This document shows positions 20,619-64,000 of a DNA stretch of 64,000 nt, in pieces. The stretch is from Minisyncoccota bacterium. GTDB lineage: Bacteria; Patescibacteriota; Minisyncoccia; Phycocordibacterales; UBA9973. How positions within the stretch are numbered: position 1 is the first letter of the stretch; every line of letters starts with the position of its first letter. The notes beneath the pieces were generated by a model. That model saw only the letters and a program-made list of their open reading frames with translations. It had not been told where the DNA came from and did no database searches. The position numbers and the translations under genes are program-made. The DNA is taken from positions 22,240 through 86,239 of the forward strand of contig JARLIG010000004.1 in assembly GCA_031291825.1 (NCBI GenBank). The letters run 5' to 3'.

Positions 20619-21037
20619 AAATAAAGGTTAAAAAATTAAAAGAAGGTGCAAAGTTGCCGACATATCATCATCCTGGGGATATCGGTATGGATTTGTATTC
20701 AATGGAAACAGTGACCGTAAAACCCAGGGAACATTATCGTTTCTGGCACGGATTCGCGCTTGAATTCCCCGAAGGATATGGAGCTTTTATAAAAGATAAG
20801 TCTAGTATTTCTAAAGCTGGGCTACATCAATTGGGTGGAGTTTTTGACGCTGGCTATCGAGGAGAATACAATACGCATTTGGTAAATTTGTCTGATGCAT
20901 CGTATACTTTTGAAGAAGGAGACAAAGTTGCGCAGCTGGTTATTTTGCCAGTTGAAATAGTAGAGCTAGAAGAAACAGATGTTTTAAGTGACTCAGCTCG
21001 TGGAGAAGGAAAATTTGGAAGCACGGGAAAGAAATAA
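20615..21037 (+). CDS. dut: dUTP diphosphatase.
   Basis: The segments GDIGMDLYS and VFDAGYRGE and motif V SARGEGKFGSTGK are present. Confidence 0.85.
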   Translation: MKIKVKKLKEGAKLPTYHHPGDIGMDLYSMETVTVKPREHYRFWHGFALEFPEGYGAFIKDKSSISKAGLHQLGGVFDAGYRGEYNTHLVNLSDASYTFEEGDKVAQLVILPVEIVELEETDVLSDSARGEGKFGSTGKK

Positions 21038-21058
21038 ATTACGAATTGATAATTACGA

Positions 21059-27200: not shown

Positions 27201-27755
27201 TTGAAATTAAAAAATGAGCAAGATGTGGAAAGTGTGCATCTGACCGAATGGCCAAAAACTGAGAAAGTAAATACCCAGATTCTTGATGATATGAAAAAAG
27301 TTCGAGAAATCGTGACGCTTGGTCTTGAGGCTCGCCAAAAAGCTGGAATAAAAGTGCGTCAGCCACTAAATCAATTACAAATCAAGAATTACGAACTAGG
27401 AATTGAATACACAGAATTGATTAAAGAAGAATTGAATGTAAAAGAAATAAAAGAAAATAAAAACATCGAAAACGAAGTTTTGTTGGATGTGAAAATTGAT
27501 GAAGAATTAAAACAAGAGGGAGATTACCGTGAATTGATGCGCGCTCTGCAAGATATGCGCAAGAAAATGGGACTTACCCCAAGTGATGTTGTTTCAGTGG
27601 TTTTTGAAACCGACGAAGCAGGTAAAAATTTAATTGAAAAATTTGAAGCAGATATGAAAAAAACCATACTAGCGTCAAAAATAAAATTCAAAGAAAGCGG
27701 TGGTGAGGAAATAAAAATAGATGAGTTGGTTTTTAAAGTAAAAATAGAAAAATAA
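24204..27755 (+). CDS. ileS: Isoleucyl-tRNA synthetase (type-2/eukaryote-like) carrying an inserted histidine-phosphatase (PGAM-like) domain.
   Basis: Catalytic-core motifs PPTANGKPGIHHLEAR...GWDTHGLPVE, Zn knuckles WCPRCG and CEDCK, and DQTRGWFYTL are present. The editing domain contains TTPWTLPGN. KMSKS is present; the segment DLHRPYID is normally found in type-2 IleRS. The insert spans roughly nt 25764-26300 and contains VIRHGEAENN, SPFLRTRET, PGGES and IVSHG. Confidence 0.8.
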   Translation: MAENIEHNKSEAALREERILEFWKENKIFEKSLKQTEGEKEFIFYEGPPTANGKPGIHHLEARAFKDAIPRYKTMQGFHVRRKGGWDTHGLPVELQVEKKLGLNSKKGIEEYGIAKFNQECKESVWEYLEVWNKFTKRIGYWVDQENAYVTYHNDYIESVWNIVKKINEQKLLYKDYKVVPWCPRCGTALSSHELAQGYEEVKDLSVTAKFKVVPSAQKNPSALLHPMGGTFRLQDSSVPTYILAWTTTPWTLPGNVALAVGEKLDYVKIKVGNEFFILAKARLSVVEGEYEIIEEIKGKDLLGLEYEPLYPFLSNTVFETEKWKMEKAYKVYGAGFVTTEDGTGVVHTAVMYGQDDFVLGTKVGLPKHHLVGLDGRFLAGTGIFEGRFVRDEDVAVDVIKDLAHRGLLFKKEKYEHSYPHCWRCKTALIYYARDSWYIKVSDPLIKDKMISENKTINWEPSHIRDGRFGEWLREIKDWAVSRERYWGTPLPVWTCEDCKTVEVIGSVEEIKDKTKKSGNKYFVIRHGEAENNAKNIYSSDPNINHLTEKGKEQVLKTAKELINKKVSIVYCSPFLRTRETVEIVSEKIGFPKDKIIYDDRIRELGLGDFSGKSSEKYLDFAEGKTWTFDEKIPGGESYQDTKNRFGEFLYEIDQKHHNETILIVSHGLAVEVIPSIIEGADKKRSLEIFTAQESNKTASLHKEHNFIPIPHNENYELDLHRPYIDEVKLVCSCGGNLVRTKEVMDVWLDSGAMPFAQDHYPFENKKWVDGVGYPADFISEAIDQTRGWFYTLHAVGVLMGRGKAYKNVICLGHLLDAKGKKMSKSLGNIVDPWEAMDKYGADTLRLWMYSVNQPGESKNFDEKTVALLHQQVFGLLYNVLAFYELYRDKEAERSYLENSKRYNLENLNVLDQWILARLDELIKISTDNLDNYKLLEPTRAIRDFVGDLSTWYLRRSRDRIKDANNEDSKEAKQTLYFVLKTLVKVMAPFAPLAAEDIWLKLKNEQDVESVHLTEWPKTEKVNTQILDDMKKVREIVTLGLEARQKAGIKVRQPLNQLQIKNYELGIEYTELIKEELNVKEIKENKNIENEVLLDVKIDEELKQEGDYRELMRALQDMRKKMGLTPSDVVSVVFETDEAGKNLIEKFEADMKKTILASKIKFKESGGEEIKIDELVFKVKIEK

Positions 27756-28391: not shown

Positions 28392-30344
28392 TTGCACTTA
28401 GATGATACAATTCTACATATGCCGTCTGACGACAAGAACAATCTCAATCGACTTGAAGAGCTAAAGAGTAAACTCTTTAGTAAAAATTATCAGACCAAGA
28501 TAGAACATAGAGACGTTTTTTCTCATGCGCAAAGAAATGACCTAGAGGATTCTTGGGAAAAAGTTGAAAAAGATAGTAGTGGGGTGGCGAGCAGATTTTT
28601 TATGAATACATCTCTTTTTAAAAAATTCTTTTTTTTCTCTGTCGGTGTTTTTATTTTAGCCTTGGTTTATGTCGGTTATATTTCTTTTATTGGAGGCAAT
28701 ACGGTTTCGAATAACAATATTGATATTTCTGTGGTTGGTAATAATTTTACGGCTGGCGGAGAAGCACTGCCATTGATTGTTCAGGTTACCAATAGAAATA
28801 ATTCAGCACTCGAATTAGCGGATTTGGTAATGCAATATCCAAACGGGAGCTCTTCTGATGCGTCTTCTACCTTACGCGAATCTCTGGGCACGATTGGCGC
28901 GGGGGCAGTTGTAAATGAAAATTTAAAACCTGTGCTATATGGCGAGCAGGGTAGCACCGCTACCATAACCTTTTCTTTGGAATATCATATTCCTGGCTCC
29001 AATGCGATTATCGTAAAAAGCCAACCTTACGTTGTTACTATAAATTCCACGCCGATAAATATTTCTGTAGATGCTCCACCCACCCTAAGTCCAAATCAGG
29101 CTATTGCTTTAAATGTGAAAACTACACTCAATTCCACCACTACCATTCCAAATGTTCTAGTAAAGGTTGATTATCCGATTGGATTTCAATTTTCTTCTGC
29201 TACGCCCGCTCCTTCTTTTGGCAATAACGTTTGGAGCTTGGGTGACTTAGCTCCTGGCGCAGAGCACGATATTTCTATTTCTGGAACCATGGTTGGTGTT
29301 TTTAGTGGAGACCAAAAAACTTTCAATATTTCAAGTGGTTCACAGTCTAGCACCGACAAGTCTGCAATTGACGTAGTTTTTAATTCTGTACAGCAGACGG
29401 TTGCAATACAAAAACCTTTCATCGAAGCAGACCTTGCGGTGAATGGTGTTTCAGGAAATTCTTTTACGACAACTTCTAAGACACCTATTAATGCGACCAT
29501 CAATTATGTAAATAATTTAGACACGACGGTTGATAATGTGCAAATTGTTGCCAAGATATCAGGCAATGCTTTTGATCCAAGCACTATAAATGCGTCACAG
29601 GGTTTTTATGATTCTTCAGCCAATACAATAACTTGGGATAAAAACTATCAAAAACAACTCGCTCAAGTAAATCCTGGTGATTCTGGTTCTTTGAATTTTT
29701 CTCTTAACCCTCTTTCTTTATTCTCTGCTAGGGGAGGTCTGTTACCCACGCCGACCATTAACGTGGAAATAGATATTTCAGGGCAACAGGCAAATTCTGG
29801 TTTTGCGGTGAACAATATAACTAACTCTTCTTCAGCTACAGTGAAAGTTATTTCTGATGTCGGATTTTCCGATAAAGCACTATATTATTCTGGACCTTTT
29901 ACCAATACTGGTCCGATACCTCCAGACGTTGGCAAAATTACGACTTATACTATAGTTTGGACACTTTCCAATACTGCTAATAGTATTTCCAATGCGCAAG
30001 TTATTTCGTCTCTGCCAGAATGGATAAATTTTGTTGGACCCATATCACCAACGAGTGAAAACTTAACTTATAATTCCACTACTAGACAATTAATTTGGAA
30101 TGCCGATAGAATTCCTTCTGGCGCAGGTCTCACTGGGACGGCACGCTCAGTTTCTTTTCAGGTTTCTTTTAATCCTTCACTCTCACAAGTCAGCACTACT
30201 CCGATTATTCTCAATGGTGCTGTTTTGACGGGGCACGATGATTTTGCTAATGTGGACTTAACGGTCAGCAAAGCCGCGCTCAGTACCAATTTATCCAACG
30301 ACACTGCTTTCCCGGGAGGCGGGGGGAACGTGGTAAGTAATTAA
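28392..30344 (+). CDS. Hypothetical membrane-anchored surface protein (single TM, large S/T/N-rich ectodomain).
   Basis: A TM helix FFFFSVGVFILALVYVGYISFIGG comes after about 70 aa. No recognisable catalytic motifs were seen. An alternative start is at 28419. Confidence 0.4.
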   Translation: MHLDDTILHMPSDDKNNLNRLEELKSKLFSKNYQTKIEHRDVFSHAQRNDLEDSWEKVEKDSSGVASRFFMNTSLFKKFFFFSVGVFILALVYVGYISFIGGNTVSNNNIDISVVGNNFTAGGEALPLIVQVTNRNNSALELADLVMQYPNGSSSDASSTLRESLGTIGAGAVVNENLKPVLYGEQGSTATITFSLEYHIPGSNAIIVKSQPYVVTINSTPINISVDAPPTLSPNQAIALNVKTTLNSTTTIPNVLVKVDYPIGFQFSSATPAPSFGNNVWSLGDLAPGAEHDISISGTMVGVFSGDQKTFNISSGSQSSTDKSAIDVVFNSVQQTVAIQKPFIEADLAVNGVSGNSFTTTSKTPINATINYVNNLDTTVDNVQIVAKISGNAFDPSTINASQGFYDSSANTITWDKNYQKQLAQVNPGDSGSLNFSLNPLSLFSARGGLLPTPTINVEIDISGQQANSGFAVNNITNSSSATVKVISDVGFSDKALYYSGPFTNTGPIPPDVGKITTYTIVWTLSNTANSISNAQVISSLPEWINFVGPISPTSENLTYNSTTRQLIWNADRIPSGAGLTGTARSVSFQVSFNPSLSQVSTTPIILNGAVLTGHDDFANVDLTVSKAALSTNLSNDTAFPGGGGNVVSN

Positions 30345-30372
30345 ATTACGAATTAAGAATTACGAATTAACA

Positions 30373-36463: not shown

Positions 36464-36507
36464 CCCAGACGTCCAACGTCTGGAAGGTTCCAGACGTTGG
36501 ACGTCTG
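36464..36507. repeat. REP-like palindromic element, a double unit: CCCAGACGTCCAACGTCTGG-AAGGTT-CCAGACGTTGGACGTCTG.
   Basis: Two inverted copies of the 19-nt hairpin unit CCAGACGTTGGACGTCTGG are seen directly. The element is intergenic between tatD and rpsF. Confidence 0.8.
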
Positions 36508-36547
36508 TAGACTAATAAACTTTACTTTTCAGCATCCTTTTGCTAAT

Positions 36548-37072
36548 ATGAATCCCATGCAAGTAAGTGAAAAAGATATTGAATTAAAAGACGAAAACGA
36601 AATGACTGAAGGTGACGGCAGAGTCTACGAGGTAGGCTACTTGTTGGCTTCCACCATTACCGAGGAAAATCTTCCGGTTGTTTTTGGTAATTTAAAGGAA
36701 TTGGTTTCTTCTCTTGGAGGAATTGCGATTGCTGACGAAATGCCAAGAATGATTCAGCTTGCTTATCCGATGGTTAAAGTTGTTGCCAATGTTCGCAATA
36801 AGTTTAACACCGCCTATTTTGGTTGGGTCAAATTTACGATGGATTCCGACAAGATTTTGGAATTAAAAAAGAAACTTGACCTTGATCCAAATTATATTCG
36901 ATTTTTAATCTTAAAAACAGTTAAAGAAAATACTATCGCCGCTAAGAGATTTGTGGGTAGGGATATGGCTCATAGGAAACCAAAGACAGAAAAAGGTGAA
37001 GACGCTGGAGTCGCTGTTCCAATAAACAAAGAAGAGATTGATAAGGAAATAGATGCGTTAGTAGAAGCTTAG
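36548..37072 (+). CDS. rpsF: Ribosomal protein S6 with a C-terminal extension.
   Basis: S6-like features (YEVGYLL..., LAYPM) are present. The gene follows the conserved rpsF-ssb-rpsR order. The ORF track start at 36497 overlaps the repeat; 36548 (MNPMQV) is more likely. Confidence 0.65.
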   Translation: MNPMQVSEKDIELKDENEMTEGDGRVYEVGYLLASTITEENLPVVFGNLKELVSSLGGIAIADEMPRMIQLAYPMVKVVANVRNKFNTAYFGWVKFTMDSDKILELKKKLDLDPNYIRFLILKTVKENTIAAKRFVGRDMAHRKPKTEKGEDAGVAVPINKEEIDKEIDALVEA

Positions 37073-37106
37073 TTAAATTACGAATTTTTAATTACGAATT
37101 ACGAAA

Positions 37107-37570: not shown

Positions 37571-37611
37571 CCAGACGTTGGACGTCTGCAAAGCAAGACG
37601 TACAACGTCTC
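37571..37611. repeat. REP-like element: CCAGACGTTGGACGTCTG plus AAGCAAGACGTACAACGTCT.
   Basis: It is near-identical to the copy at 44710-44752. Confidence 0.8.
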
Positions 37612-43527: not shown

Positions 43528-43623
43528 AGAGACGTCCAACACCTGCTTTAGCAGATGTTGGACGTCTAGAGATTTAATTTTTCCCAGACGTTGGACATCC
43601 GCAGAGCGGGTGTCCAACGTCTG
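43528..43623. repeat. Two REP-like hairpins: AGACGTCCAACACCTGCTTTAGCAGATGTTGGACGTCT and CCCAGACGTTGGACATCCGCAGAGCGGGTGTCCAACGTCTG.
   Basis: Long imperfect palindromes are seen directly. They lie in the divergent intergenic region upstream of the ftsK start. Confidence 0.8.
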
Positions 43624-44709: not shown

Positions 44710-44752
44710 TCAGACGTTGGACGTCTACTAAAGCAAGACGTACAACGTCTGA
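44710..44752. repeat. REP-like element: TCAGACGTTGGACGTCT...AAGCAAGACGTACAACGTCTGA.
   Basis: It is a sibling of the 37571 copy. It lies directly after the stop of ORF 43816..44697 and probably acts as a terminator. Confidence 0.8.
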
Positions 44753-49022: not shown

Positions 49023-49067
49023 TAGAAGGTCGAATATTCTATTGGTCTAATCTCTTAAACGAGATTC

Positions 49068-49112
49068 AAAAAACCACTCCTCACGGAGTGGTTTTTTGTT
49101 GCCAATTTTTCC
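49068..49112 (+). terminator. Terminator-like hairpin AAAAACCACTCCTCACGGAGTGGTTTTTTGTTGCCAATTTTTC; this is copy 1 of an identical direct repeat.
   Basis: An identical ~45-nt sequence recurs at 49691-49735. It has a stem-loop plus a T-run. Confidence 0.7.
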
Positions 49113-49690: not shown

Positions 49691-49735
49691 AAAAAAACCA
49701 CTCCTCACGGAGTGGTTTTTTGTTGCCAATTTTTC
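49691..49735 (+). terminator. Copy 2 of the identical terminator-like direct repeat.
   Basis: It matches 49068-49112 exactly. Confidence 0.7.
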
Positions 49736-49741
49736 TATTTT

Positions 49742-49816
49742 TGACGTTGGACATCCGCCAAAGGCGGATGTCCAACGTCGGCTCCAGACGTGGAGCGTCT
49801 TGGAGGTTTATCCACA
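49742..49816. repeat. Composite REP-like element with a TTTATCCACA tail: GACGTTGGACATCCGCCAAAGGCGGATGTCCAACGTC + GGCTCCAGACGTGGAGCGTCTTGGAGG + TTTATCCACAG.
   Basis: The same architecture recurs at 51511-51598. Confidence 0.8.
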
Positions 49817-50432: not shown

Positions 50433-50479
50433 AAACCGACGTTGTACACCCGCAAGGCGGATGTCCAACGTCGGTTTTT
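50433..50479. repeat. REP-like hairpin in a terminator configuration: AAAAACCGACGTTGTACACCCGCAAGGCGGATGTCCAACGTCGGTTTTTGTTTTT.
   Basis: A long GC-rich stem is flanked by A- and T-runs. Confidence 0.8.
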
Positions 50480-50715: not shown

Positions 50716-50789
50716 CTCCAGACATTCCCAGACGTTGGACGTCTGTATCCTTACAGACGTCCAACGTCTGGAGGTTTATCCACATCCGC
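50716..50789. repeat. Composite REP-like element immediately upstream of the RAYT gene: CTCCAGACATTCCCAGACGTTGGACGTCTG-TATCCTTA-CAGACGTCCAACGTCTGGAGGTTTATCCACA.
   Basis: It is a double hairpin with a TTATCCACA tail. Confidence 0.8.
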
Positions 50790-50836
50790 TTCATGAAGTA
50801 TGTATGAGATAATAAAACTGTAATTTTTATTATTTT

Positions 50837-51502
50837 ATGAGAAAACATCCACTCGTAACTAATCAATATTATCATATATACAACAGGGGAGTTGATAAAC
50901 GAGATATCTTTTCAGACAAGAAAGATCTCAATCGTTTTATTTTGAGTATCAAGCAATTCAATAAAATTTATCCAGTTGGCAGTATCCGAGACAACGTGCG
51001 AGATAAAATAGTTTCTAAATATTTAAAACGACGAGGCAAAGATGCTGATGCCTTGGTTTCTATTGTTTGTTTTTGTTTAAATCCAAATCATTTTCATTTT
51101 ATTTTAAAGCAAGAAGCTGATGGTGGTATTTCTGAATTTCTAAAACGTCTTTTGGGTGGATATACAAAATATTTTAATTTAACCCACAAACGTAGTGGCG
51201 CCCTGTTTCAGGGTAGGTTTAAATCACGCTTGATAGACAGTGAACAATATTTTTTGAAAATTTTTCCATACGTGAATATCAACCACATGATTCATGACAT
51301 ACCGGAAGAAAAAAGATTTTTGGTTTCTTCTAGTGACGTTGAATACGAAAAAATGGTCTTTGATATTGTCTCTAAAAAAGAAGCTGAAAATCTCCTCGCT
51401 TTTTATGGCAATAAAAACAATTTTAAAAATGAATGCCTAAAAGTATCTTCAATAATTAGAGAACAAAGAGAAGAGGTGTCTTCATTTCTAGAAGAAGAGT
51501 AG
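50837..51502 (+). CDS. IS200/IS605-like HuH tyrosine transposase, probably a REP-associated tyrosine transposase (RAYT / TnpA_REP).
   Basis: Motifs present are YYHIYNRGVDKRDIF, the HuH motif NPNHFHFILK, the Tyr region GGYTKYFNLTHKRSGALFQGRFKSRLI and YFLKIFPYVNINHM. The gene is flanked on both sides by REP-like elements. Confidence 0.7.
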   Translation: MRKHPLVTNQYYHIYNRGVDKRDIFSDKKDLNRFILSIKQFNKIYPVGSIRDNVRDKIVSKYLKRRGKDADALVSIVCFCLNPNHFHFILKQEADGGISEFLKRLLGGYTKYFNLTHKRSGALFQGRFKSRLIDSEQYFLKIFPYVNINHMIHDIPEEKRFLVSSSDVEYEKMVFDIVSKKEAENLLAFYGNKNNFKNECLKVSSIIREQREEVSSFLEEE

Positions 51503-51510
51503 ATTTCGTG

Positions 51511-51598
51511 TTCCAGACGTTGGACTGACGTTGTACACCCGCAAGGCGGATGTCCAACGTCGGCTCCAGACGTCCAACGTCTGGAGGGTTATCCACTT
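51511..51598. repeat. Composite REP-like element immediately downstream of the RAYT gene, ending in GGTTATCCACT.
   Basis: The sequence is TTCCAGACGTTGGACTGACGTTGTACACCCGCAAGGCGGATGTCCAACGTCGGCTCCAGACGTCCAACGTCTGGAGGGTTATCCAC. Confidence 0.8.
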
Positions 51599-52284: not shown

Positions 52285-55200
52285 ATGAAGAACAATTTTA
52301 TAAAAGAATACGGCAAAGTTGTTGTATGTTTTATGTTTCTTGTTGTTTTTCTGATACCCAAGTTCTCTTTTGCTTCTGGTCAGTGCTCTAAGAGTGGATA
52401 TACGGTTTTAGTTATTAATGGAGTAAATACCACTCAACAGGAGGCTGAAAACAATGCAACTAATCTAGAATCTAAATTTAAACCAACATATAATGGAGAA
52501 AACCTTAATATTAAATATCTTTATAACCCTACTCATACTGCAATAGCCGATCTTCTTGATGCAGGAGTGCAAAAAACCGATGACCAGTCTATGTCTGACC
52601 TTCAAGATTCAGATTTTGCGCAGATGTTAAATGATGCTAGTAATAAAGTTAAAACACAGAAACTTTTACTAGTTGGTCATTCTCAGGGAAATTTTTATGC
52701 CAATACTTTTTACGATACAGTTGTTGATGCTACTGGCGGTATTCCGAGTCAGTCTATTGGTGTTTATGCGGTGGCTACGCCAGCTAACCGTGTTTCCGGA
52801 ATAAATAGTGCAAATTATATAACTTCTGACACAGACCAAGTGATAGACCATATTCCTGGCATTTTAAAACCAAATGTCCACATAGATTTTAAAGCCAGTG
52901 ACGGTGATTTAATGGGCCATGATTTTTCTAAAATATATTTAAAATATGAAGGTGCAAAAATTGTTTCCGATATAGATACCTCACTTAATAAACTAAAAAC
53001 CAACGATATTCAAAATGAAAACGTTGCTTGTATTAATCCACCGAAATTAACTTTGCCACAAAAAATACAAGGAACGATTTTGTCTACGCTTGACCATGTG
53101 ACGCTTCCATTTCAAGATGCTCTTGTTTATGTTGCTACTGGTGTAACTAATGTTACTGTCGCTATCGCTAATACGACGGTAAATCTTACCGGCTCAGCTA
53201 TTTCTGCTGTTTCTTCTTTGTTTAACCAAACTGTCAGCAATACCAATACTTTGGCGACAAGTGGCGGAGGGGATGTAATAAATTCGATAGAACCCACAAC
53301 ACTAAGTAATTCTACAAGTACTCAACTGACAGAAAATTTACAACCAACTCCACAATTTACATCACCACAAAATGTTTCAATTATAAATTCTTCACCGACG
53401 ACCGAAACCACTTCTTCAAATTCAGCAGCATCATTTGTCGGTAGGGGTGGCGGTGGAGAAGTTGCTATGGCAGAGGAAAATGACGAAGGAGCAATAATTC
53501 CACCAACCATTCCACCGATAGATAATAATCCACCATCTACTGATGTTACTCCTCCCGTCATCACTGTTTTGGGAGACAATCCTGCAGTGGTTGTGCAATA
53601 TGATACTTACACCGATGCTGGGGCTACTGCCACTGACGACGTTGATGGTGCTATTAATGTTGTTGCCAGCGGAACAGTTGATACGACAACGGTTGGCATT
53701 TACACTATTACTTACACGGCGACAGATTCCTCAGGAAATATTGCAACGGCGACTCGTAGTGTAACAGTAGTTGCTTCACAGTCCACTACGAATCCTCCTC
53801 CGTCACCACTCAGTACTTTTACGATTGATAAAGATACAACTCTGACTGCTGGTGAGTACAATTATGAAAATTTATTAATAACCAATAACGCAATATTAAC
53901 CTTACAAGGAGACCCTACTTCCTCGAGTGCTTTCAAGGGAGTAAAAATTAACGCAGATAATATTACTATCGATCCTGGTTCTTCTATTTCTGCAGATGGA
54001 GAGGGTTATGCAGGAGGTGATGGACCAGGAAATTCTTCAGTGTACTATGTCGGGGCAAGTTATGGAGGACTTAGTTATAATGGAGCTACGTATTCGCAAA
54101 CTTATGGTTCAGCTATAAAGCCTACAGACTTAGGCAGCGGAGGACATAGTTCTGGCGGTGGGGCGATTGAGCTAAATGTCTCAAATACTTTTACCGATGA
54201 TGGTACTGTCTCTGCTGATGGTAATATTTCTAGCAGTGGTGGAAGTATTTATGTGACAGCTCAAAATATTACTGGTAGTGGAATATTGCAAGCTGATGGT
54301 GGAAATCTTTTTGGGAGCGGTTATTTCCAAAGTCCAGGAGGGGGTGGAAGAATTGCCGTTTATTATCAAACATCCACTTTTAGCGGAACAGCAGAAGCAA
54401 AAGGTGGATGTGGTAGTTACGATAGTTCGACTAATTCTTGCGCGGGCGACGGAACGGTTGGTTTTTTTAACACGAGTACTAATGATTTATATCTAAACAA
54501 CTCTTGGGAATTTCTACAAGCAGATGCACCCTTTTTATTTAATAATATTTATATTTCAAATGGTGCCAAGGTAACATCGGAAAATGATGTAACGATAACA
54601 ACCAAAAATAATTTTATCGTTGATAAAAATTCTTCTTTTGCTTTAGCTGATAATCAAATATTAAATTCTCCGACACTTATAATTAGCAGTAATTCAACTT
54701 TAACTCTTTCGGGAACTGAAAAAATTACTTCCAACGACCTTATTCTTACTGGAAATTCCACTTTAACTATCGTTCCTCAAAAAATACTTTCTTTAACGAT
54801 TCCAAATATTCATATTGATTCTGGTTCTTCTATTTCTGCAGACGGAAAAGGTTATGGTCAAAGTGAAGGTCCAGGAGAACCAGCGGTAAGTGGTGCTGGC
54901 GCAAGTTATGGTGGTGTCGGTTATCAAAATTCTTTAACCTCAACATATGGATCTCAAACAAATCCAGTCGATTTAGGAAGCGGTGCGGCGTTGAGTGGTG
55001 GCGGAGCCATACAACTTATTGTTTCAAATACTTTTGAAAATGATGGAATAGTTTCTGCTTCTGGTAGCGCTTCTGGTAGTGGAGGAAGTATAAATATAAA
55101 TACAAACAGCTTGTCTGGTACTGGTGCATTTAGTGCGGACGGTGGAGGACTTTACGGCAATGGTTATTTTCAGGGCCCAGGTGGAGGGGGACGGGTTGCT

Positions 55201-55998
55201 ATTTCTTACAACGCCACTTCTTTTAGCGGAACAGTAGAAGCTAAAGGAGGATGTGGCAGTTATGATGGTTGGAGTAGTTCTTGCGCAGGTGGTGGGACGG
55301 TTTATATTCTAAATGAATCAGTTCCAGTCCAGAGTTCTTTAAAAACAATTACAGCATTTGATTTTTCAAATTTAACGCCGATTGTTTCTGGTGTTGTTGA
55401 TGAAACGAACCATGCTATTTCTTTGACTGTCCCTTATGGAACGGATATAACGACTCTCGTGCCTATGATTACTATTTCAGATAAAGCATCAATTAGTCCA
55501 ACCACAAACACGTCTCAAGATTTTACGAATCCAGTTACTTATAAAATTACTGCAGAAGATGGATCAACACAAAATTATGTTGTGAATGTGACCGTAGCGC
55601 CCAACCCAGATCCTCCAGTGACACCGCCTCAAACACCAAGCACGACACTACCTTCAATCACAAGTTATACATTTAATGGTACGGCTGGAAACATAATAAT
55701 AAATCCGACAGCAATAACCCCTTTTTCTTTAATGATGACTGCTAGTGAAAATGTAAATTGGATGTCTATAAAAATTGAAAATCAAAACGATTCAAGCACT
55801 TATAAAATTTTTCAGTCTGGGGCAGGCTGTGTGGATGGCACAAATACTTGCACAAAAAGTTGGGACGGTGCTTTGTCAAAAGGGGGGTTGTTGCAAAATG
55901 GAACTTTTCGAATAAAGGTTCATGTCAAAGACAGCGCGGGCAATGAATACGACGATTATCTTACCCCATATATAATTACAGTTGACACTTCGTTGTAA
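52285..55998 (+). CDS. Giant secreted protein (1237 aa). It has an N-terminal alpha/beta-hydrolase (lipase-like GHSQG) domain, an Ig-like domain, two tandem ~190-aa Gly-rich beta-helix-like repeats and C-terminal Ig-like domains.
   Basis: A signal peptide is present. The nucleophile elbow is LLVGHSQGNFY. The two repeats are GSGGHSSGGGAIELNVSNTF...KGGCGSYDSSTNSCAGDGTV and GSGAALSGGGAIQLIVSNTF...KGGCGSYDGWSSSCAGGGTV. Confidence 0.6.
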   Translation: MKNNFIKEYGKVVVCFMFLVVFLIPKFSFASGQCSKSGYTVLVINGVNTTQQEAENNATNLESKFKPTYNGENLNIKYLYNPTHTAIADLLDAGVQKTDDQSMSDLQDSDFAQMLNDASNKVKTQKLLLVGHSQGNFYANTFYDTVVDATGGIPSQSIGVYAVATPANRVSGINSANYITSDTDQVIDHIPGILKPNVHIDFKASDGDLMGHDFSKIYLKYEGAKIVSDIDTSLNKLKTNDIQNENVACINPPKLTLPQKIQGTILSTLDHVTLPFQDALVYVATGVTNVTVAIANTTVNLTGSAISAVSSLFNQTVSNTNTLATSGGGDVINSIEPTTLSNSTSTQLTENLQPTPQFTSPQNVSIINSSPTTETTSSNSAASFVGRGGGGEVAMAEENDEGAIIPPTIPPIDNNPPSTDVTPPVITVLGDNPAVVVQYDTYTDAGATATDDVDGAINVVASGTVDTTTVGIYTITYTATDSSGNIATATRSVTVVASQSTTNPPPSPLSTFTIDKDTTLTAGEYNYENLLITNNAILTLQGDPTSSSAFKGVKINADNITIDPGSSISADGEGYAGGDGPGNSSVYYVGASYGGLSYNGATYSQTYGSAIKPTDLGSGGHSSGGGAIELNVSNTFTDDGTVSADGNISSSGGSIYVTAQNITGSGILQADGGNLFGSGYFQSPGGGGRIAVYYQTSTFSGTAEAKGGCGSYDSSTNSCAGDGTVGFFNTSTNDLYLNNSWEFLQADAPFLFNNIYISNGAKVTSENDVTITTKNNFIVDKNSSFALADNQILNSPTLIISSNSTLTLSGTEKITSNDLILTGNSTLTIVPQKILSLTIPNIHIDSGSSISADGKGYGQSEGPGEPAVSGAGASYGGVGYQNSLTSTYGSQTNPVDLGSGAALSGGGAIQLIVSNTFENDGIVSASGSASGSGGSININTNSLSGTGAFSADGGGLYGNGYFQGPGGGGRVAISYNATSFSGTVEAKGGCGSYDGWSSSCAGGGTVYILNESVPVQSSLKTITAFDFSNLTPIVSGVVDETNHAISLTVPYGTDITTLVPMITISDKASISPTTNTSQDFTNPVTYKITAEDGSTQNYVVNVTVAPNPDPPVTPPQTPSTTLPSITSYTFNGTAGNIIINPTAITPFSLMMTASENVNWMSIKIENQNDSSTYKIFQSGAGCVDGTNTCTKSWDGALSKGGLLQNGTFRIKVHVKDSAGNEYDDYLTPYIITVDTSL

Positions 55999-56001
55999 TT
56001 T

Positions 56002-56046
56002 CTCAGACGTTGGACTGACGTTGGACGTCTGGAGGGTTATGCACAG
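56002..56046. repeat. REP-like element (deletion variant): CTCAGACGTTGGACTGACGTTGGACGTCTGGAGGGTTATGCACAG.
   Basis: It shares its 5' half with the 51511 copy and has the TTATGCACA tail. Confidence 0.8.
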
Positions 56047-57340: not shown

Positions 57341-59098
57341 ATGGACAATAAATCATCTAGACAAAAAGTAGCGCTTATCTCTGTATATGACAAGACGGGC
57401 ATTAAAGAATTTGCAAAAAATCTAGTAGATTTGGGCTGGAAAATAGTCTCTTCTGGTGGCACAGCTAAACATTTAACAGAAGCGGGTATGCCCGTGACTG
57501 ACGTAGCGGAAATTACCGGCATGCCACCAATTCTTTCACACCGAGTTTTGACGCTACATCCGAAAATCCATGGCGGGCTTTTGGCGCTTGATACATCGGA
57601 GCATTTAGCAGAGCTGGAAAAATATGGGATTCCTTGGATTGATTTAGTTTGTTGTGATTTATATCCACTGGAGGAGGAAATAAAAAACTCTAGCGCGACG
57701 CGAGAATCAGTTATTGAAAAAACAGATATTGGTGGACCGACAATGCTTCGTTCGGGGGCAAAAGGGAGGCGCATAACTATTTGTGACCCGAGCGATAGAG
57801 AAAAAGTAATTGAGTGGTTAAAAAAAGGCGAGCCTGAACGTGAAGAATTTTTAAATAATTTAGCAGCTAAGGCGGAAGCAGTAATTGCAAAATACTGTTC
57901 TGCTTCTGCCGAGTATCACAGTAAAGGAGAGCTCAAAGGAATTTTTGGAAAGAAAGAAATAGAATGCGCATATGGGGAAAATGCATATCAAAAACCAGCC
58001 AGCTTATATAGAAATTTAAATGTGCATAACACTCCAGACGGTGGACGTCTGGAAGCTACCAGACGTCCAACGTCTGGAGACCCATTAGCCATACATAATT
58101 GGCAACTCGTGGCAGGCAGTCCGCTTTCCTATAATAATATTTGCGATGTGGATAGAATGATGCAAACGATGACACATATTGGCGCTGGTTTTGAGAAAAA
58201 TTTTGGAAAAGTTCCAGACATCGCGATTGGCGCAAAGCATGGCAATGCTTGTGGGGCAGCGTTTGCTGAAGAAGAAATTAATGCGATTGATAATATGCTC
58301 TTGGGAGACTTGCGCGCAATTTTCGGCGGTTCGGTGATGCTAAATTTTAATGTAGATGAAAAAATTGCGGAAGAATTAATCCATAAATATGCAGGTGCTG
58401 GGAGACGATTGCTGGACATTGTCGCGGCACCATCTTTTTCTGCCGAGGCTATAGAGATTTTATCTCGCAAAAAAGGTAAATGCAGAATTTTAGTAAATCC
58501 AAACATTTTGAAAGCAGGATTATCTTCTTTGGATACAACTTCTAGGTTTCGTTACGTGCGTGGGGGATTTTTGACTCAACCGAATTATACTTTTGTTCCA
58601 AGATTGCAAGAGCCAGAGATGTCGGTATTCCGCCAAGGCGGAAGCCCGACACCTGTGGCGATTATACAAGATGTCATTCTCGCTTGGGCTGTCGGATGCA
58701 CATCAAATAGCAATACAATTACAATTGTGAAAGATGGCAGACTTTATGGCAATGGCGTAGGACAACAAGACCGTGTAGGGGCCGCCAAGCTTGCAATTTT
58801 TCGCGCAGACGATGCCACCGCTTTTGCTGTGGATAACCCTCCAGACGTTGGACGTCTGGAAGCTTCCAGACGTCCAACGTCTGGGACAGGGGCTGATTTA
58901 GAAGGGGCTGTAGCTTGCAGTGATAGCTTCTTTCCTTTCCCAGATGCGCCGGAAGTACTAATAAATCGGGGGATAAAGACCATCTTTTCCACTAGTGGCT
59001 CAGTAAATGACGATAAAATTATAGAACTTTGCAAGACAAAAAACGTAAATCTAATAATGCTTCCAGACTCTGAAGCCAGGGGATTCTACCAGCATTAA
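57341..59098 (+). CDS. purH: Bifunctional AICAR transformylase / IMP cyclohydrolase (PurH) carrying two in-frame REP-like insertions.
   Basis: The N-terminal MGS-like motifs are ALISVYDKTGI...SSGGTAKHL...RVLTLHPKIHGG. The C-terminal AICARFT motifs are SPLSYNNICD, ACSDSFFPFPD and FYQH. The inserted peptides are PDGGRLEATRRPTSGD and PDVGRLEASRRPTSGT. Confidence 0.75.
   Translation: MDNKSSRQKVALISVYDKTGIKEFAKNLVDLGWKIVSSGGTAKHLTEAGMPVTDVAEITGMPPILSHRVLTLHPKIHGGLLALDTSEHLAELEKYGIPWIDLVCCDLYPLEEEIKNSSATRESVIEKTDIGGPTMLRSGAKGRRITICDPSDREKVIEWLKKGEPEREEFLNNLAAKAEAVIAKYCSASAEYHSKGELKGIFGKKEIECAYGENAYQKPASLYRNLNVHNTPDGGRLEATRRPTSGDPLAIHNWQLVAGSPLSYNNICDVDRMMQTMTHIGAGFEKNFGKVPDIAIGAKHGNACGAAFAEEEINAIDNMLLGDLRAIFGGSVMLNFNVDEKIAEELIHKYAGAGRRLLDIVAAPSFSAEAIEILSRKKGKCRILVNPNILKAGLSSLDTTSRFRYVRGGFLTQPNYTFVPRLQEPEMSVFRQGGSPTPVAIIQDVILAWAVGCTSNSNTITIVKDGRLYGNGVGQQDRVGAAKLAIFRADDATAFAVDNPPDVGRLEASRRPTSGTGADLEGAVACSDSFFPFPDAPEVLINRGIKTIFSTSGSVNDDKIIELCKTKNVNLIMLPDSEARGFYQH
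58024..58081. repeat. REP-like element inside purH: TGTGCATAAC-ACTCCAGACGGTGGACGTCTGG-AAGCTA-CCAGACGTCCAACGTCTGGAG.
   Basis: It is a double hairpin plus a TGTGCATAAC tail, and it is in-frame in the CDS. Confidence 0.8.
58828..58887. repeat. REP-like element inside purH: GTGGATAACC-CTCCAGACGTTGGACGTCTGG-AAGCTT-CCAGACGTCCAACGTCTGGG.
   Basis: It is a double hairpin plus a GTGGATAACC tail, and it is in-frame in the CDS. Confidence 0.8.
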
Positions 59099-62119: not shown

Positions 62120-62946
62120 CGTTTAATCAGTATGATAATCACAAGAAACAGTTTAAGAAGGCGGCGCTAAGAGCAGACTTTCTTTGTCTGTTAGGGCCGC
62201 TCAAAAAGCGGTTTTTTTTGTGGAAAAATCAGGACGAATGACACTTTGAAAACTTAATCCCTGTTCTAAAACTTTTAAGGGGTCTTTGTTGTGACGGTCA
62301 AACGTTACAGGAAGGGTCTTCCTCTTAAAAATTAGAGATAGGAAAAATTCTTTTTATTTAATTACCAGAGCGGTCTGGAATTATAATTAATTCAAAAGGA
62401 TTTGTTTTATCCCGGCGTAAAGTCGGGATTGTGATTTATAAATTTCTTAACAGGAAATTTAAGGGCGTACGGTGGATGCCTAGACTTTAAGAAGCGATGA
62501 AGGACGTGGCGTTGCTGCGATAAGCTTCGGGGAGGTGCTTAGCAACCTTTGATCCGGAGATTTCCGAATGGGGAAACCCTATCAAGTAAACCTTGATAAT
62601 TTTTATCTTTATGATAAAAGAGCGCACCCTGGGAAGTGAAACATCTCAGTACCAGGAGGAGTAGAAACAAATATGCATTTCCTTAGTAGCGGCGAGCGAA
62701 AAGGAAGAAGTCCAAACCGTTCTCGCAAGAGGGCGGGGTTGTAAGATGACAATTTTTATTTAATTAAAGAGGAGTCAAAAAATAAGTTATTAGCTTAAGT
62801 TGCTGGAAAGCAACACCATAGGAGGTGATAGTCCCGTGAGCGAAAATTTCTTATCTCTTTTATTGTTATTCTTGAGTACCCCAGGACATGAATGGCCGGG
62901 GGGAATCCAGCGGAACTAACCGCTAAGACTAAATATTCTTAAAGAT

Positions 62947-62983
<37 letters not shown>

Positions 62984-63713
62984 CAGCCCGATTAGGGCGG
63001 TGAAATAGACCTGAAACCGTATGTCTACAAGGAGTTGAAGCAGGTATTTATATCTGCGACAGCGTGCCTATTGAAGAATGAGCCAACGAGTTTATTCATG
63101 CTGCTGGTGAAGTGGACTAAAACCACAGAACCAAAGGGAAACCGAGTGTTAATAGCGCGAAATAATAGTAGCATGCATAAGACCCGAAGCCAGGTGAGCT
63201 TGCCATGAGCAGGATGAAGGAGGTCGAAAGATCTCTGGAGGTCCGAACGGGTAGATCGTACAACGTCTTCCGATGACTTGTGGTAAGGAGTGAAAAGCTA
63301 ATCGAACCTGGTAATAGCTGGTTCTCTCCGAAATAGCTTTAGGGCTAGCGTCGTATGTTTTTTCTGGGGGTAGAGCACTGGAAGGTTTCGACAGGGAGCA
63401 ATCTCGCGAAACCTATCAAACTCCGAATACCAGAGACCATAGCGCGGCAGTTAGGCCATGGGGGCGAAGCTCCATTGGCCAAAAGGGAAACAGCCCGGAT
63501 CTCAAAATAAGGTCCCTAAATATATACTAAGTGTAAGACAAGAAGGTGAGATTTCTTTAACAATGAGGAGGTTGGCTTAGAAGCAGCCATCCTTTAAAGA
63601 TAGCGTAACAGCTCACTCATCTAGAGATTTTGCGTCGAAAATAATTGGGGCTAAGTATATTACCGAATTTGAGGATTCGTAGACTTCATACAGATTTTTT
63701 GTACATTGTTTTA

Positions 63714-63790
63714 GCGGGAGTAACGAAAAGCACTCAAACAGGAGTGCCAGGCGTTAATAATTTGGGGTTCAATTCCCCCCTCCTGCGCCA
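63714..63790 (+). ncRNA. Second, non-canonical 77-nt tRNA-like element (acceptor plus T arm plus CCA; the D arm is not foldable).
   Basis: The acceptor is GCGGGAG/CTCCTGC (6 Watson-Crick pairs plus one GU). The T arm is GGGG-TTCAATT-CCCC. The discriminator is G, followed by CCA. An internal hairpin GCACTC-AAACAG-GAGTGC replaces the normal D/anticodon arms. Confidence 0.2.
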
Positions 63791-63797
63791 AGTGTGT

Positions 63798-63908
63798 CGA
63801 GACGTAGCGCAGCCCGGTAGCGCATCAGACAAGAGTAAAGTGTCTAGCTTAATCAAAGGCACTGCACCTATCTGAGGGTCGGAGGTTCAAATCCTCCCGT
63901 CTCGACCA
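63798..63908 (+). tRNA. tRNA-like element with a perfect acceptor, D and T arms and encoded CCA, but a 41-nt anticodon loop (possible ~34-nt intron).
   Basis: The acceptor is CGAGACG/CGTCTCG (7/7). The D arm is GCGC-AGCCCGGTA-GCGC. The anticodon stem is TCAGA/TCTGA. The variable region is GGGTC. The T arm is GGAGG-TTCAAAT-CCTCC. The discriminator is A, followed by CCA. Confidence 0.35.
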
Positions 63909-64000
63909 TCTTTCTCAAGTGAGAGAGTATTTGTTTTTCCCAAGCGGGATTTTAAGATTTCGTTTGGGGTCTGTATGAAGTCTACGAGTGGTAGGAGAGT

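Follow-up and report, generated by a model that had tools for sequence, protein, structure and literature searches.

A probable REPtron-like system in Paceibacteria: a Y1 HUH enzyme gene bracketed by its cognate DNA hairpins

One gene in the 64,000-nucleotide stretch of DNA analysed here (the window) encodes a predicted Y1 HUH tyrosine nuclease or transposase and is bracketed by members of a recurrent family of DNA hairpins. We consider it likely that gene and hairpins form a REPtron-like system, that is, a Y1 HUH enzyme of the TnpAREP/RAYT type, domesticated and inherited vertically, together with its cognate hairpin family. Comparison with 80 related loci supports a functional association between the hairpins and the gene. 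The DNA belongs to a MAG of the Paceibacteria (CPR), in keeping with the CPR-like host that had been guessed from the letters alone.

Results

The product of the open reading frame is 221 amino acids long and carries the HFHFIL motif to which the original prediction had drawn attention, at residues 85-90, followed by YTKYFN (109-114) and LFQGRFKSR (123-131). The HUH motif is H85-F-H87 and the 'FQ' motif F124-Q125. As had been proposed, the protein matches the Y1 model of Pfam, PF01797 (Y1_Tnp; 26.4 bits against a curated cut-off of 23 bits, E 8.1e-6, residues 71-146), and a Pfam scan found Y1_Tnp in 61 of 61 aligned family members. Close homologues number 3440 in Paceibacteria. The AF2 model of the whole protein (pLDDT 86.4) has as its best PDB match in Foldseek 4ER8, the E. 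coli protein TnpAREP with its REP hairpin (E 3.5e-6), and the matches ranked after it are 2A6M, 2VJV and 2XMA, structures of IS608 and ISDra2 TnpA. A sequence search of the family profile against the PDB gave no meaningful match, and the relationship to TnpAREP suggested by the model is visible through fold comparison only. Identification as RAYT-like, proposed at the outset, is supported, the best fold match speaking for it, with the caveat that the NCBIfam model for the RAYT equivalog, NF047646, gives 30 bits where its cut-off is 80. Judged by its motifs and modelled fold, the product is a Y1 HUH enzyme with predicted catalysis.

The Tyr-containing block had been placed at YTKYFN...LFQGRFKSR. 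This was probably a misassignment, as YTKYFN forms helix alpha-C and LFQGRF is the 'W/FQ' motif. The catalytic residue is probably Y145 (Y145-V-N-I-N149-H), which lies on helix alpha-D and, like H85-F-H87, is invariant across the aligned family. This stretch would correspond to the class-2 tyrosine motif, Y-x-x-x-N-P (PMC6006769); here the residue after Y145-V-N-I-N149 is H or Y, not P. Residues 157-219 make up a C-terminal helical extension.

Both flanks of the gene hold composite copies of the hairpin CCAGACGT-TGG/CCA-ACGTCTGG, and the predicted bracketing was borne out at the distances given in Table 1. The upstream composite starts with a partial copy, CTCCAGAC (50716-50723), continues as an inverted doublet of the short hairpins CCAGACGTTGGACGTCTG and CAGACGTCCAACGTCTGG (50728-50772; loops TGG, then CCA) and closes with the tail GTTTATCCACA (50774-50784); it folds into a 20-bp hairpin (dG -25.5 kcal/mol, z -10.4). 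Downstream, a truncated short hairpin (51511-51525) is followed by the long hairpin TGACGTTGTACACCCGC-AAG-GCGGATGTCCAACGTCGG (51526-51563), a full short hairpin with loop CCA (51564-51586) and the tail GGTTATCCACT (51587-51597), all in a nested fold (dG -27.7 kcal/mol, z -6.1). Scanning for promoters and terminators around the gene was uninformative: it gave 11 promoter-like sites where 6.3 were expected, and no terminator.

Table 1. Position of the gene and of hairpin copies in the window
Feature	Coordinates	Strand	Setting
Inverted doublet, loops CCA then TGG	36465-36508		intergenic
Short hairpin and degenerate second copy	37571-37611		intergenic
Two long-hairpin variants (43530-43567, 43584-43623)	43530-43623		between divergent genes
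Doublet with degenerate second copy	44710-44752		intergenic
Long hairpin (49743-49779), degenerate short hairpin and tail GTTTATCCACA (49806-49816)	49743-49816		
Long hairpin with A-run and T-run at its sides	50435-50474		
Upstream composite	50716-50784		ends 52 nt 5' of ATG
Y1 HUH tyrosine nuclease/transposase gene	50837-51502	+	221 aa; one copy in window
Downstream composite	51511-51597		begins 9 nt past stop codon
Truncated copy abutting full short hairpin, then tail GGTTATGCACA	56004-56045		
purH doublet 1 with reversed tail TGTGCATAA	58021-58079		in frame; translated ..VHNTPDGGRLEATRRPTSG..
purH doublet 2 with reversed tail TGTGGATAA	58828-58886		in frame; translated ..VDNPPDVGRLEASRRPTSG..

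Members of the family share a design of 5-9 variable stem pairs, a nearly invariant G-T...A-C and a 3-nt loop, TGG or CCA. That such palindromes recur through the window is evident from the core 10-mer GACGTTGGAC, which occurs 19 times, on both strands, where 100 dinucleotide-preserving shuffles lead one to expect 0.04. About 25 hairpins are present at 12 sites, confined to 36.4-59 kb and all lying between -14.4 and +8 kb relative to the gene. The doublets fold as 19-20 bp hairpins of single-strand DNA (dG -24 to -28 kcal/mol, z -9 to -10), and the copy at 49743-49816 reaches -30.6 kcal/mol (z -9.7). The copy at 50435-50474 resembles a terminator because an A-run and a T-run flank its long hairpin. 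The copy at 56004-56045 sits 3' of a 1237-aa gene and 5' of rplJ. Rfam matched only the 23S rRNA in the window and none of the hairpins. A GT[AG]G tetranucleotide (GTAG-type foot) abutting the stems was not found. Beyond the window, an exact 19-mer of the repeat turns up on 50 metagenome stretches, as a doublet in about half of them, without a nearby gene in 45 of the 50 and in many unrelated contexts.

Two of the doublets in the window are translated as part of purH. Both are insertions relative to solved PurH structures. The 16-aa segment of the first is missing from three orthologues that are 70-74% identical (L001, L020 and L029), and the purH of L020 has its own hairpin type where the second doublet sits. 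Further in-frame copies occur in at least six unrelated long ORFs of related metagenome contigs. The unit inserted in coding DNA measures 48-60 nt.

The gene occupies a fixed chromosomal position, 5' of rplJ-rplL, in about 20 Paceibacteria loci that share the order o293-big1235-up163-gene-dn214-big1237-rplJ-rplL. These conserved neighbours, together with the single gene copy in the window, are the basis for proposing vertical inheritance and domestication. The flanking palindromes are no coincidence of the window, since orthologues at 57-80% protein identity in other genomes show hairpins of this design to either side of the gene. In most genomes one hairpin precedes the start codon by ~10-45 nt and a second is placed at the stop. 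Under a strict criterion that required perfect stems, a cognate hairpin is found both upstream and at the stop in 27 of the 40 clade-A loci and on both flanks in 18 of the 40 clade-B loci; inspection of the flanks by eye revealed hairpins in nearly all loci. A third cognate hairpin lies in frame within the gene itself in 20/40 clade-A loci (at +164 to +193 nt, strict criterion) and about 17/40 clade-B loci. Its place is fixed, ahead of the HuH motif at codons about 55-68, and corresponds to the low-confidence loop 60-69 of the AF2 model. This internal hairpin is common to both paralogous clades and matches the flanking copies. It is absent from the window's own gene.

Changes on both sides, that is, compensatory ones, are seen at 8 of 10 stem pairs, and pairing holds in 90.6% of cells, against 71% in shuffles and 28-46% with the partners slid, a count in which only the outer pairs are unbiased because the hairpins were chosen for having three or more pairs beyond GT/AC. 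Identity of the stem arms is 90% (72% exact) when copies of one genome are compared and 53% (7% exact) across genomes. Clade-B genes, which are about 52% identical to those of clade A, are flanked by a different hairpin, CAGATAGAG..yTWAr..CTCTATCTG, and six genomes carry both genes, a single one per clade. At 25 of 37 clade-A loci, and at nearly all clade-B loci, the surrounding 10-20 kb contains no further copy. Proliferation therefore appears specific to some lineages, and in most genomes the hairpins may be only gene-linked. Of the expected signature, a single-copy gene amid many repeats, the window shows one gene and 12 repeat sites, and many relatives show gene-linked copies only. The flanking loops were checked for a fixed inverted orientation and showed none; orientation is mixed and bears no relation to the tail (17 TGG vs 12 CCA).

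The tail that often follows the hairpin reads TT[AT]TCCACA and lies 1-7 nt from the stem; it is present at only about 15-20% of hairpin sites. The GTGG/CCAC inside it lies 5-12 nt from the stem, again at about 15-20% of sites, and at one locus (L017) the palindrome has a GTGG-type foot on both sides. The tail is conserved while the stems vary. At clade-A genes its density per kb is 1.28 in the DNA immediately upstream and 0.81 in that immediately downstream, over a background of ~0.1; clade-B genes have hairpins but no tail box. As a fixed promoter element the tail was rejected, the next -10-like box being about 21 to 41 nt away depending on the locus. The region was likewise rejected as an oriC, with no box cluster in a single spacer and a cumulative GC skew that does not turn, and the ORFs tested in the region included no dnaA. 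The idea of a DnaA_C-like HTH in the C-terminal domain was taken from PMC6006769. A C-terminal HTH resembling DnaA domain IV and reading the tail was not supported for the present family: the Pfam scan of the 61 members returned no Bac_DnaA_C or HTH family, and residues 150-221 modelled alone (AF2, pLDDT 74.5) had only PDB matches with E >= 2.

Discussion

In the REPtron-like system that we favour, the hairpin would be extruded on single-stranded DNA and recognised by the enzyme, which would use Y145 and the HUH metal site to cut and rejoin the DNA beside the hairpin. Such cutting and rejoining would keep the gene-linked copies identical within a genome. In some lineages, the present one among them, it would also seed further copies at other places. 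These would mostly be inverted doublets (REPIN-like) and would land in intergenic DNA or, now and then, in frame in coding loops. We infer catalysis, the single-stranded substrate, the cleavage site and mobilisation by the present protein rather than another. It is conceivable, if on balance doubtful, that an ancient, domesticated Y1 nuclease found throughout Paceibacteria acts as a minimal self-editing REPtron with its own 5', in-frame surface-loop and 3' hairpins. The enzyme's cut-and-rejoin would then keep the three gene hairpins identical, some lineages would burst into REP/REPIN-like copies that add 16-20-residue peptides to housekeeping proteins in genomes that are otherwise strongly streamlined, and the TT[AT]TCCACA tail would serve as the element's link either with the enzyme, in the role of a displaced GTGG 'foot', or with DnaA.

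The hairpins might instead be mainly cis-regulatory, serving as operator, internal attenuator or roadblock and 3' terminator or mRNA stabiliser, bound by the protein or another factor and not moved, with the extra copies having arisen otherwise. We think this unlikely. It would suit the fact that most related loci hold just two or three gene-linked copies, the placing of the upstream copy at many loci where a leaderless-type promoter has its -35 position, just 5' of a TAnAnT box that ends 6-8 nt before ATG, and the intrinsic-terminator-like A and T tracts of the 50435-50474 copy. However, most copies have no T-tract, the terminator scan found 0, and the dispersal of exact copies over many unrelated contexts points away from a fixed regulatory role, as do the in-frame copies in purH and other ORFs, one of them missing from close orthologues. 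Doublets and nested or truncated copies are, moreover, typical of mobile REP/REPIN elements. To our knowledge, Y1 HUH enzymes are nucleases and not known repressors, which also counts against regulation. The tail invites a different view, namely that it is a genuine DnaA box and that DnaA titration or control of neighbouring genes, not the Y1 protein, conserves the modules; we regard this as quite improbable. The tail does equal the high-affinity DnaA-box consensus, TT[AT]TNCACA (PMC6006769), is enriched beside clade-A genes and stays constant as the stems vary. Yet clade-B hairpins are without the box, and a DnaA box therefore fails to explain the hairpins; nor does it account for the large majority of hairpin sites, at which the box is missing. 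The tail also accompanies hairpins at unrelated sites to which they have travelled and is read through as part of purH, the window has neither a box cluster in one spacer nor a GC-skew turn, and no resemblance to DnaA domain IV was found in the protein's C-terminal domain. The CCAC of the tail is the reverse complement of GTGG and fits the GT[AG]G REP 'foot', and with such a foot on both sides at L017 the tail may therefore belong to the recognition sequence.

The unit of hairpin, gene and hairpin could also be read as an autonomous IS200/IS605-type insertion sequence with the flanking hairpins as its left and right ends, which we judge very improbable. The Y1_Tnp domain, the hairpins in subterminal position on both gene sides and the presence of IS608 and ISDra2 TnpA among the fold matches agree with it, and the Y1 HUH fold is common to both. 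Recognition of subterminal hairpins on single-stranded DNA, a feature of IS200/IS605 (PMC6006769), is here predicted only. Against this reading, the gene is single-copy in the window and has kept its chromosomal surroundings in about 20 genomes whose proteins are 57-80% identical; no tnpB-like Pfam match was found among the ten neighbouring ORFs tested; the hairpins are widespread and spread without the gene; and where a genome has two of the genes, they share only about 52% identity. The tyrosine motif also differs, being Y-x3-N where IS200 has Y-x3-Q (PMC6006769).

The system has close known counterparts in the proteobacterial REP/RAYT 'REPtrons', such as E. coli YafM/TnpAREP and the Pseudomonas REPIN-RAYT systems. 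Both have a Y1 HUH gene that is present in one or few copies, passes on vertically and is flanked by its own palindromes, one hairpin family per paralogue, inverted doublets that can fold into one long hairpin, as in REPINs, and copies scattered through intergenic DNA, seen here within the window (PMC6006769, PMC5581495). The canonical RAYT/REP arrangement announced in the original prediction is matched in the cognate palindromes on both sides. The present protein is very distant in sequence and is not the canonical equivalog, as its NF047646 score indicates; its hairpin has no GTAG foot at the stem and offers a near-invariant GT-NNN-AC and an optional tail instead; many genomes have gene-linked copies only; copies are frequently intragenic and in frame; and the CPR bacterium that is the host has a very small genome.

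By tabulated motifs alone (PMC6006769), the family seems to fit best TnpAY1 subclass 2.1 (Quentin et al. 2018, PMC6006769), which equals RAYT Group 1 (Bertels et al. 2017, PMC5581495) and includes 'TIRYT'. The HuH motif is NH[YF]H there and NHFH here, 'FQ' replaces W and Y[IV]xxN occurs in both, the proximal tail with conserved serines has a counterpart in S166 of LVSSS, and length (about 220-240 aa) and copy number (about 2 per genome at about 50% identity) agree (PMC6006769). Subclass 2.1 was reported to be without REP-like sequences near the gene and to have TIRs GGGG[AT][CG]A[CG] instead (PMC6006769). Here, in contrast, cognate hairpins flank nearly every gene, and that TIR occurs within 300 nt of the gene at 2/40 and 2/41 loci, which is chance level. 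The DnaA_C-like HTH of some subclass 2.1 members was not found here. A family whose motifs fit a group previously reported not to be REP-associated would thus be accompanied by hairpins of its own. In subclass 2.4 of Cyanobacteria and Bacteroidetes, a cognate REP likewise lies in frame within the transposase gene (PMC6006769), but here the insert takes a single fixed pre-HuH position and matches the flanking copies. Rickettsia palindromic elements (RPE) also add a short peptide to housekeeping proteins through in-frame palindromes (PMC10969869); they are about 150 bp long and have no known cognate enzyme, whereas the present units are 48-60 nt with a candidate enzyme encoded nearby.

Searches combining RAYT or 'repetitive extragenic palindromic' with CPR, Patescibacteria, Parcubacteria or Paceibacteria found no paper in the literature searched, and a system of the REP/RAYT type has apparently been undescribed in CPR until now. 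Earlier work on REP/RAYT systems has, as far as we know, dealt almost entirely with Proteobacteria and Cyanobacteria. The genome-specific series of stems around an invariant GT-NNN-AC makes the specificity of the enzyme testable with simple oligonucleotides, and the in-frame gene hairpin and the optional DnaA-box-like tail likewise lend themselves to tests of specificity and activity. For the annotation of CPR proteins, short repeated peptides like PDVGRLEA..RRPTSG are to be taken as repeat-derived and not as protein motifs. A related pairing of gene and hairpin is conserved, at a fixed chromosomal position, across a class of ultra-small, streamlined CPR bacteria. Its persistence in genomes with little spare DNA argues that the cell benefits from the system or can hardly shed it.

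Results

The RAYT-like gene lies between two composite palindromes (see the table), as the original prediction had it, in a 64-kb window of 38.7% G+C. Their common 10-mer, GACGTTGGAC, occurs 19 times over both strands, where shuffles expect 0.04. By our own reading the hairpins number about 25 and occupy 12 sites, ten intergenic and two inside an ORF; within the window the anticipated imbalance of a single gene copy and many repeats is present. All sites are confined to 36.4-59 kb. The two copies of each doublet are asymmetric only in the 3-nt loop, which is inverted from one copy to the other (TGG/CCA). As single-stranded DNA, doublets fold into one hairpin of 19-20 bp (z-scores -9 to -10), which is the REPIN arrangement. 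Composites on both sides, the excess of the 10-mer and REPIN-like doublets together confirm the initial observation. At one junction, GACGTTGGAC|TGACGTTG, seen twice, a copy truncated directly after GTTGGAC adjoins another; this could be a preferred element breakpoint or replication slippage.

Features of the window and their coordinates
Feature	Coordinates	Composition or position
RAYT-like gene	50837-51502 (+)	
Upstream composite	50716-50784	CTCCAGAC-ATTC-CCAGACGTTGGACGTCTG-TATCCTTA-CAGACGTCCAACGTCTGG-AG-GTTTATCCACA; ends 52 nt 5' of ATG
Downstream composite	51511-51597	truncated short hairpin, 38-nt long hairpin, complete short hairpin, tail GGTTATCCACT; begins 9 nt past stop
Junction GACGTTGGAC|TGACGTTG	51516-51533; 56006-56023	
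purH	57341-59098	two in-frame doublets, ..NTPDGGRLEATRRPTSG.. and ..NPPDVGRLEASRRPTSG..
Surface protein gene	52285-55998	1237 aa; Ig-like and DUF5018 domains
AAATTACGAAT-N4/5-AATTACGAAT direct repeat	21025-21060; 27361-27396; 30332-30367; 37064-37099	three copies stop no more than 8 nt from an ORF start (21059, 30373, 37107)
CAAAAAACCACTCCTCACGGAGTGGTTTTTT unit	49067-49097; 49692-49722	31 nt, identical; 3' of two different genes
23S rRNA gene	62449-64000	begins at 62449

The 221-aa product carries NPNHFHFIL and LFQGRFKS, and the HUH motif foreseen for this ORF is H85-F-H87 in the former. In the proposed check the protein passes the Pfam Y1_Tnp model (26.4 bits, cut-off 23), and it falls short of NCBIfam's curated REP-associated tyrosine transposase model (30 bits, cut-off 80). 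An AlphaFold2 model built from 61 relatives has a mean pLDDT of 86.4, with residues 60-69 the sole poorly defined stretch. Its top match among solved structures is 4ER8 (E 3.5e-6), the E. coli REP-associated tyrosine transposase with bound REP hairpin, followed by the IS608 and ISDra2 TnpA structures. Residues unchanged across relatives include H85, H87, F124-Q125, Y138, Y145, N149 and S166. Set against the motif table of Quentin et al. 2018 (PMC6006769), in which the class 2 tyrosine motif is Y-x-x-x-N-P, these indicate that the catalytic tyrosine should be Y145, in Y-V-N-I-N, and not the one in the YTKYFN block favored originally.

By tabulated motifs only, the protein appears to fit TnpAY1 subclass 2.1 (Group 1 of Bertels), which it resembles in NHFH, in FQ replacing W and in a proximal tail rich in serine; the family is likewise about 220 aa long, and each genome has two copies, about 50% identical. 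Because some subclass-2.1 proteins have a DnaA_C-like domain (PMC6006769), we looked for one. Pfam found none in the window protein family, and a separate model of residues 150-221 had no DnaA_C-like similarity in the PDB.

A word-indexed search returned 3440 relatives, of which the top 120 show 60-100% identity; where sources are named, these are Paceibacterota, Nomurabacteria and Parcubacteria MAGs, in agreement with the CPR-like host that had been surmised. Databases already call the family RayT-like, some entries being labeled 'REP element-mobilizing transposase RayT' or 'REP-associated tyrosine transposase'. An exhaustive search of clusters at 50% identity gave 140 at E <= 1e-30, rising to 3569 at E <= 1e-10. 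From 341 loci found by scanning one genome per species, 80 (L001-L080) were kept, which a midpoint-rooted NJ tree divides 40/40 into clade A, which includes the window gene (57-80% identical to the window protein), and the paralogous clade B (about 52%). Six genomes have one gene of each (L020/L078, L004/L051, L029/L042, L028/L044, L023/L049 and L018/L064).

In every clade-A locus we read 140 nt 5' of the ATG and 150 nt 3' of the stop. These stretches show a hairpin of a single design, N(4-9)-GT-[TGG|CCA]-AC-N'(4-9), with TCG/CGA and TTA/TAA as uncommon loops and an altered core in L004. With perfect stems as a strict criterion, hairpins occur both upstream and at the stop in 27/40 loci, and 20/40 also have a third, in-frame copy within the coding sequence (+164 to +193 nt). 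The proximal upstream copy usually stops 8-35 nt short of the ATG. The internal copy is translated as SGVGHP, SDVQRP or DVGRL and falls exactly in the loop undefined in the AlphaFold2 model. Clade-B genes have a different hairpin, e.g. CAGATAGAG(C/G)-yTWAr-..CTCTATCTG, at the same three positions, and in many of their loci the upstream copy is the reverse complement of the downstream one. The flanking copies are thus no coincidence of this window. One design around clade-A genes and another around clade-B genes show that the gene-hairpin pairing is an ancient, conserved family property, specific to each paralogue.

Stems vary between genomes (CAGAC, CGGAC, CAGGT, CGGGT, TAGAC, CAGGG, GTAGAG, ATCG). 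In the 78 different hairpins linked to the gene, G9, T10, A14 and C15 never vary, and eight of ten stem pairs have changes on both sides. Of all cells, 90.6% pair, compared with 71% in shuffles and 28-46% with slid partners; as hairpins entered this set by having three or more pairs beyond GT/AC, the outer pairs alone escape ascertainment. Between 6-nt arms of one genome, identity is 90% (72% exact), but across genomes it drops to 53% (7% exact), a pattern of concerted evolution.

Further copies are absent from the 10-20 kb read in 25/37 clade-A loci and in almost all clade-B loci, whereas several are present in the window, L001, L006, L011 and L020; hairpin proliferation is therefore limited to some lineages. 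L001, the closest relative, shares the CCAGACGT..ACGTCTGG sequence and the tails of the window. Window positions 1-36400 hold no copy of the family despite several intergenic gaps of 70-290 nt, and where a genome has both paralogues, hairpins of the clade-A type abound around its clade-A gene but are almost missing from the 20 kb around its clade-B gene (e.g. L020 vs L078). Copies thus seem to cluster near their gene. The exact 19-mer CCAGACGTTGGACGTCTGG is found on 50 metagenome stretches, in about half of them as a doublet. In 45 of the 50, relatives of the gene or its neighbors were not seen, and the family is therefore dispersed in some genomes at least.

The clearest sign of hairpin movement comes from purH, where solved PurH structures mark both doublets as insertions. 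The first, of 16 aa, is cleanly missing from purH of L001, L020 and L029 (70-74% identical). L020 has a version with its own stem type at the second site. Other lineage-specific purH insertions are one of 23 aa (FPQSLGTSLRSATPSEKHTAEATL) in L001 (19400-19500) and GPSLRGDLRGDL in L029. Across clade-A and metagenome loci, 34/220 hairpins lie inside long stop-free stretches; 14 of them represent the internal copy of the RAYT-like gene, and the others fall mostly in at least 6 unrelated ORFs. Metagenome contigs L081/L118, L098, L107, L116, L122/L124 and L095/L105 have same-hairpin doublets in stop-free stretches of unrelated 210-943-codon ORFs, encoding e.g. PDVGRL..RRPTS and DVQRL..PDVGRL.

The neighbor order of the window is repeated in about 20 clade-A loci: 293-aa protein, large PG_binding protein, 163-aa protein, RAYT-like gene, 214-aa protein, large surface protein, rplJ, rplL, 194-aa protein and MscS-like protein, with purH after rplL in three. 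Neither tnpB nor another mobile-element gene was found among ten neighboring ORFs. Given these conserved neighbors, the single window copy and the lack of mobile-element genes among those ORFs, the gene holds a fixed position, is not mobile and behaves as a domesticated gene, as RAYTs have been described (PMC5581495). Synteny and copy number rule out an autonomous IS. The surface protein gene has an internal duplication (period about 843 nt, 70-80% identity). No 16S rRNA was found upstream of the 23S rRNA gene, and ARAGORN found no tRNA gene across the 64 kb.

Discussion

That the hairpins are chiefly regulatory has support. The 30 nt leading up to the ATG were compared in 81 genes (window plus L001-L080). 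In 52 of them the end of a TAnAnT box is 6-8 nt (at times as much as 13 nt) from the start codon, and a Shine-Dalgarno-like motif is present in 0/81, which suggests leaderless transcripts for this family. The upstream hairpin adjoins this -10-like box, in many loci at the position of a would-be -35 element, and many genomes have only gene-linked copies. However, regulation leaves in-frame insertions, doublets and dispersal unaccounted for. Separately, the AAATTACGAAT-N4/5-AATTACGAAT repeat could be a regulatory or translation-initiation element, and the CAAAAAACCACTCCTCACGGAGTGGTTTTTT unit (A-tract, GC hairpin, T-tract), similar to units like AAAAACCACCC..GGGTGGTTTTT in related loci, looks like a bidirectional intrinsic terminator.

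The tail TT[AT]TCCACA matches the DnaA-box consensus as quoted in PMC6006769. In clade-A loci it lies 1-7 nt past the hairpin at 32 sites, in clade-B loci at none; its presence does not depend on loop orientation, and it accompanies about a fifth of dispersed copies. Its density is 1.28/kb just upstream and 0.81/kb just downstream of clade-A genes, against about 0.1/kb elsewhere. The DnaA-box reading can account at most for the tail and leaves the hairpins unexplained. The tail also contains CCAC, the complement of GTGG, fitting the REP 'foot' GT[AG]G, and in L017 a palindrome has a GTGG-type foot on both sides.

REP/RAYT systems (PMC6006769, PMC5581495), REP copies within a RAYT gene of subclass 2.4 (PMC6006769) and in-frame palindromic repeats in genes, the RPE of Rickettsia (PMC10969869), have been described; in the literature searched we found no paper linking REP/RAYT with CPR bacteria. 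Several points are new as far as can be told. One is the family of cognate hairpins, built on a GT-NNN-AC core with stems that vary by genome, and a second is that Paceibacteria conserve it around both paralogues. The in-frame copy fixed ahead of the HUH motif and the DnaA-box-like tail also belong here. New on the same footing is a hairpin system in a 2.1-like subclass: subclass 2.1 is reported as not REP-associated, whereas this family, 2.1-like by tabulated motifs only, has cognate hairpins. Taken together, the best-supported explanation is that a domesticated Y1 HUH enzyme and its cognate hairpins form a REPtron-like pair, in which the enzyme would be the likely agent that homogenizes hairpin copies within a genome and, occasionally, spreads them.
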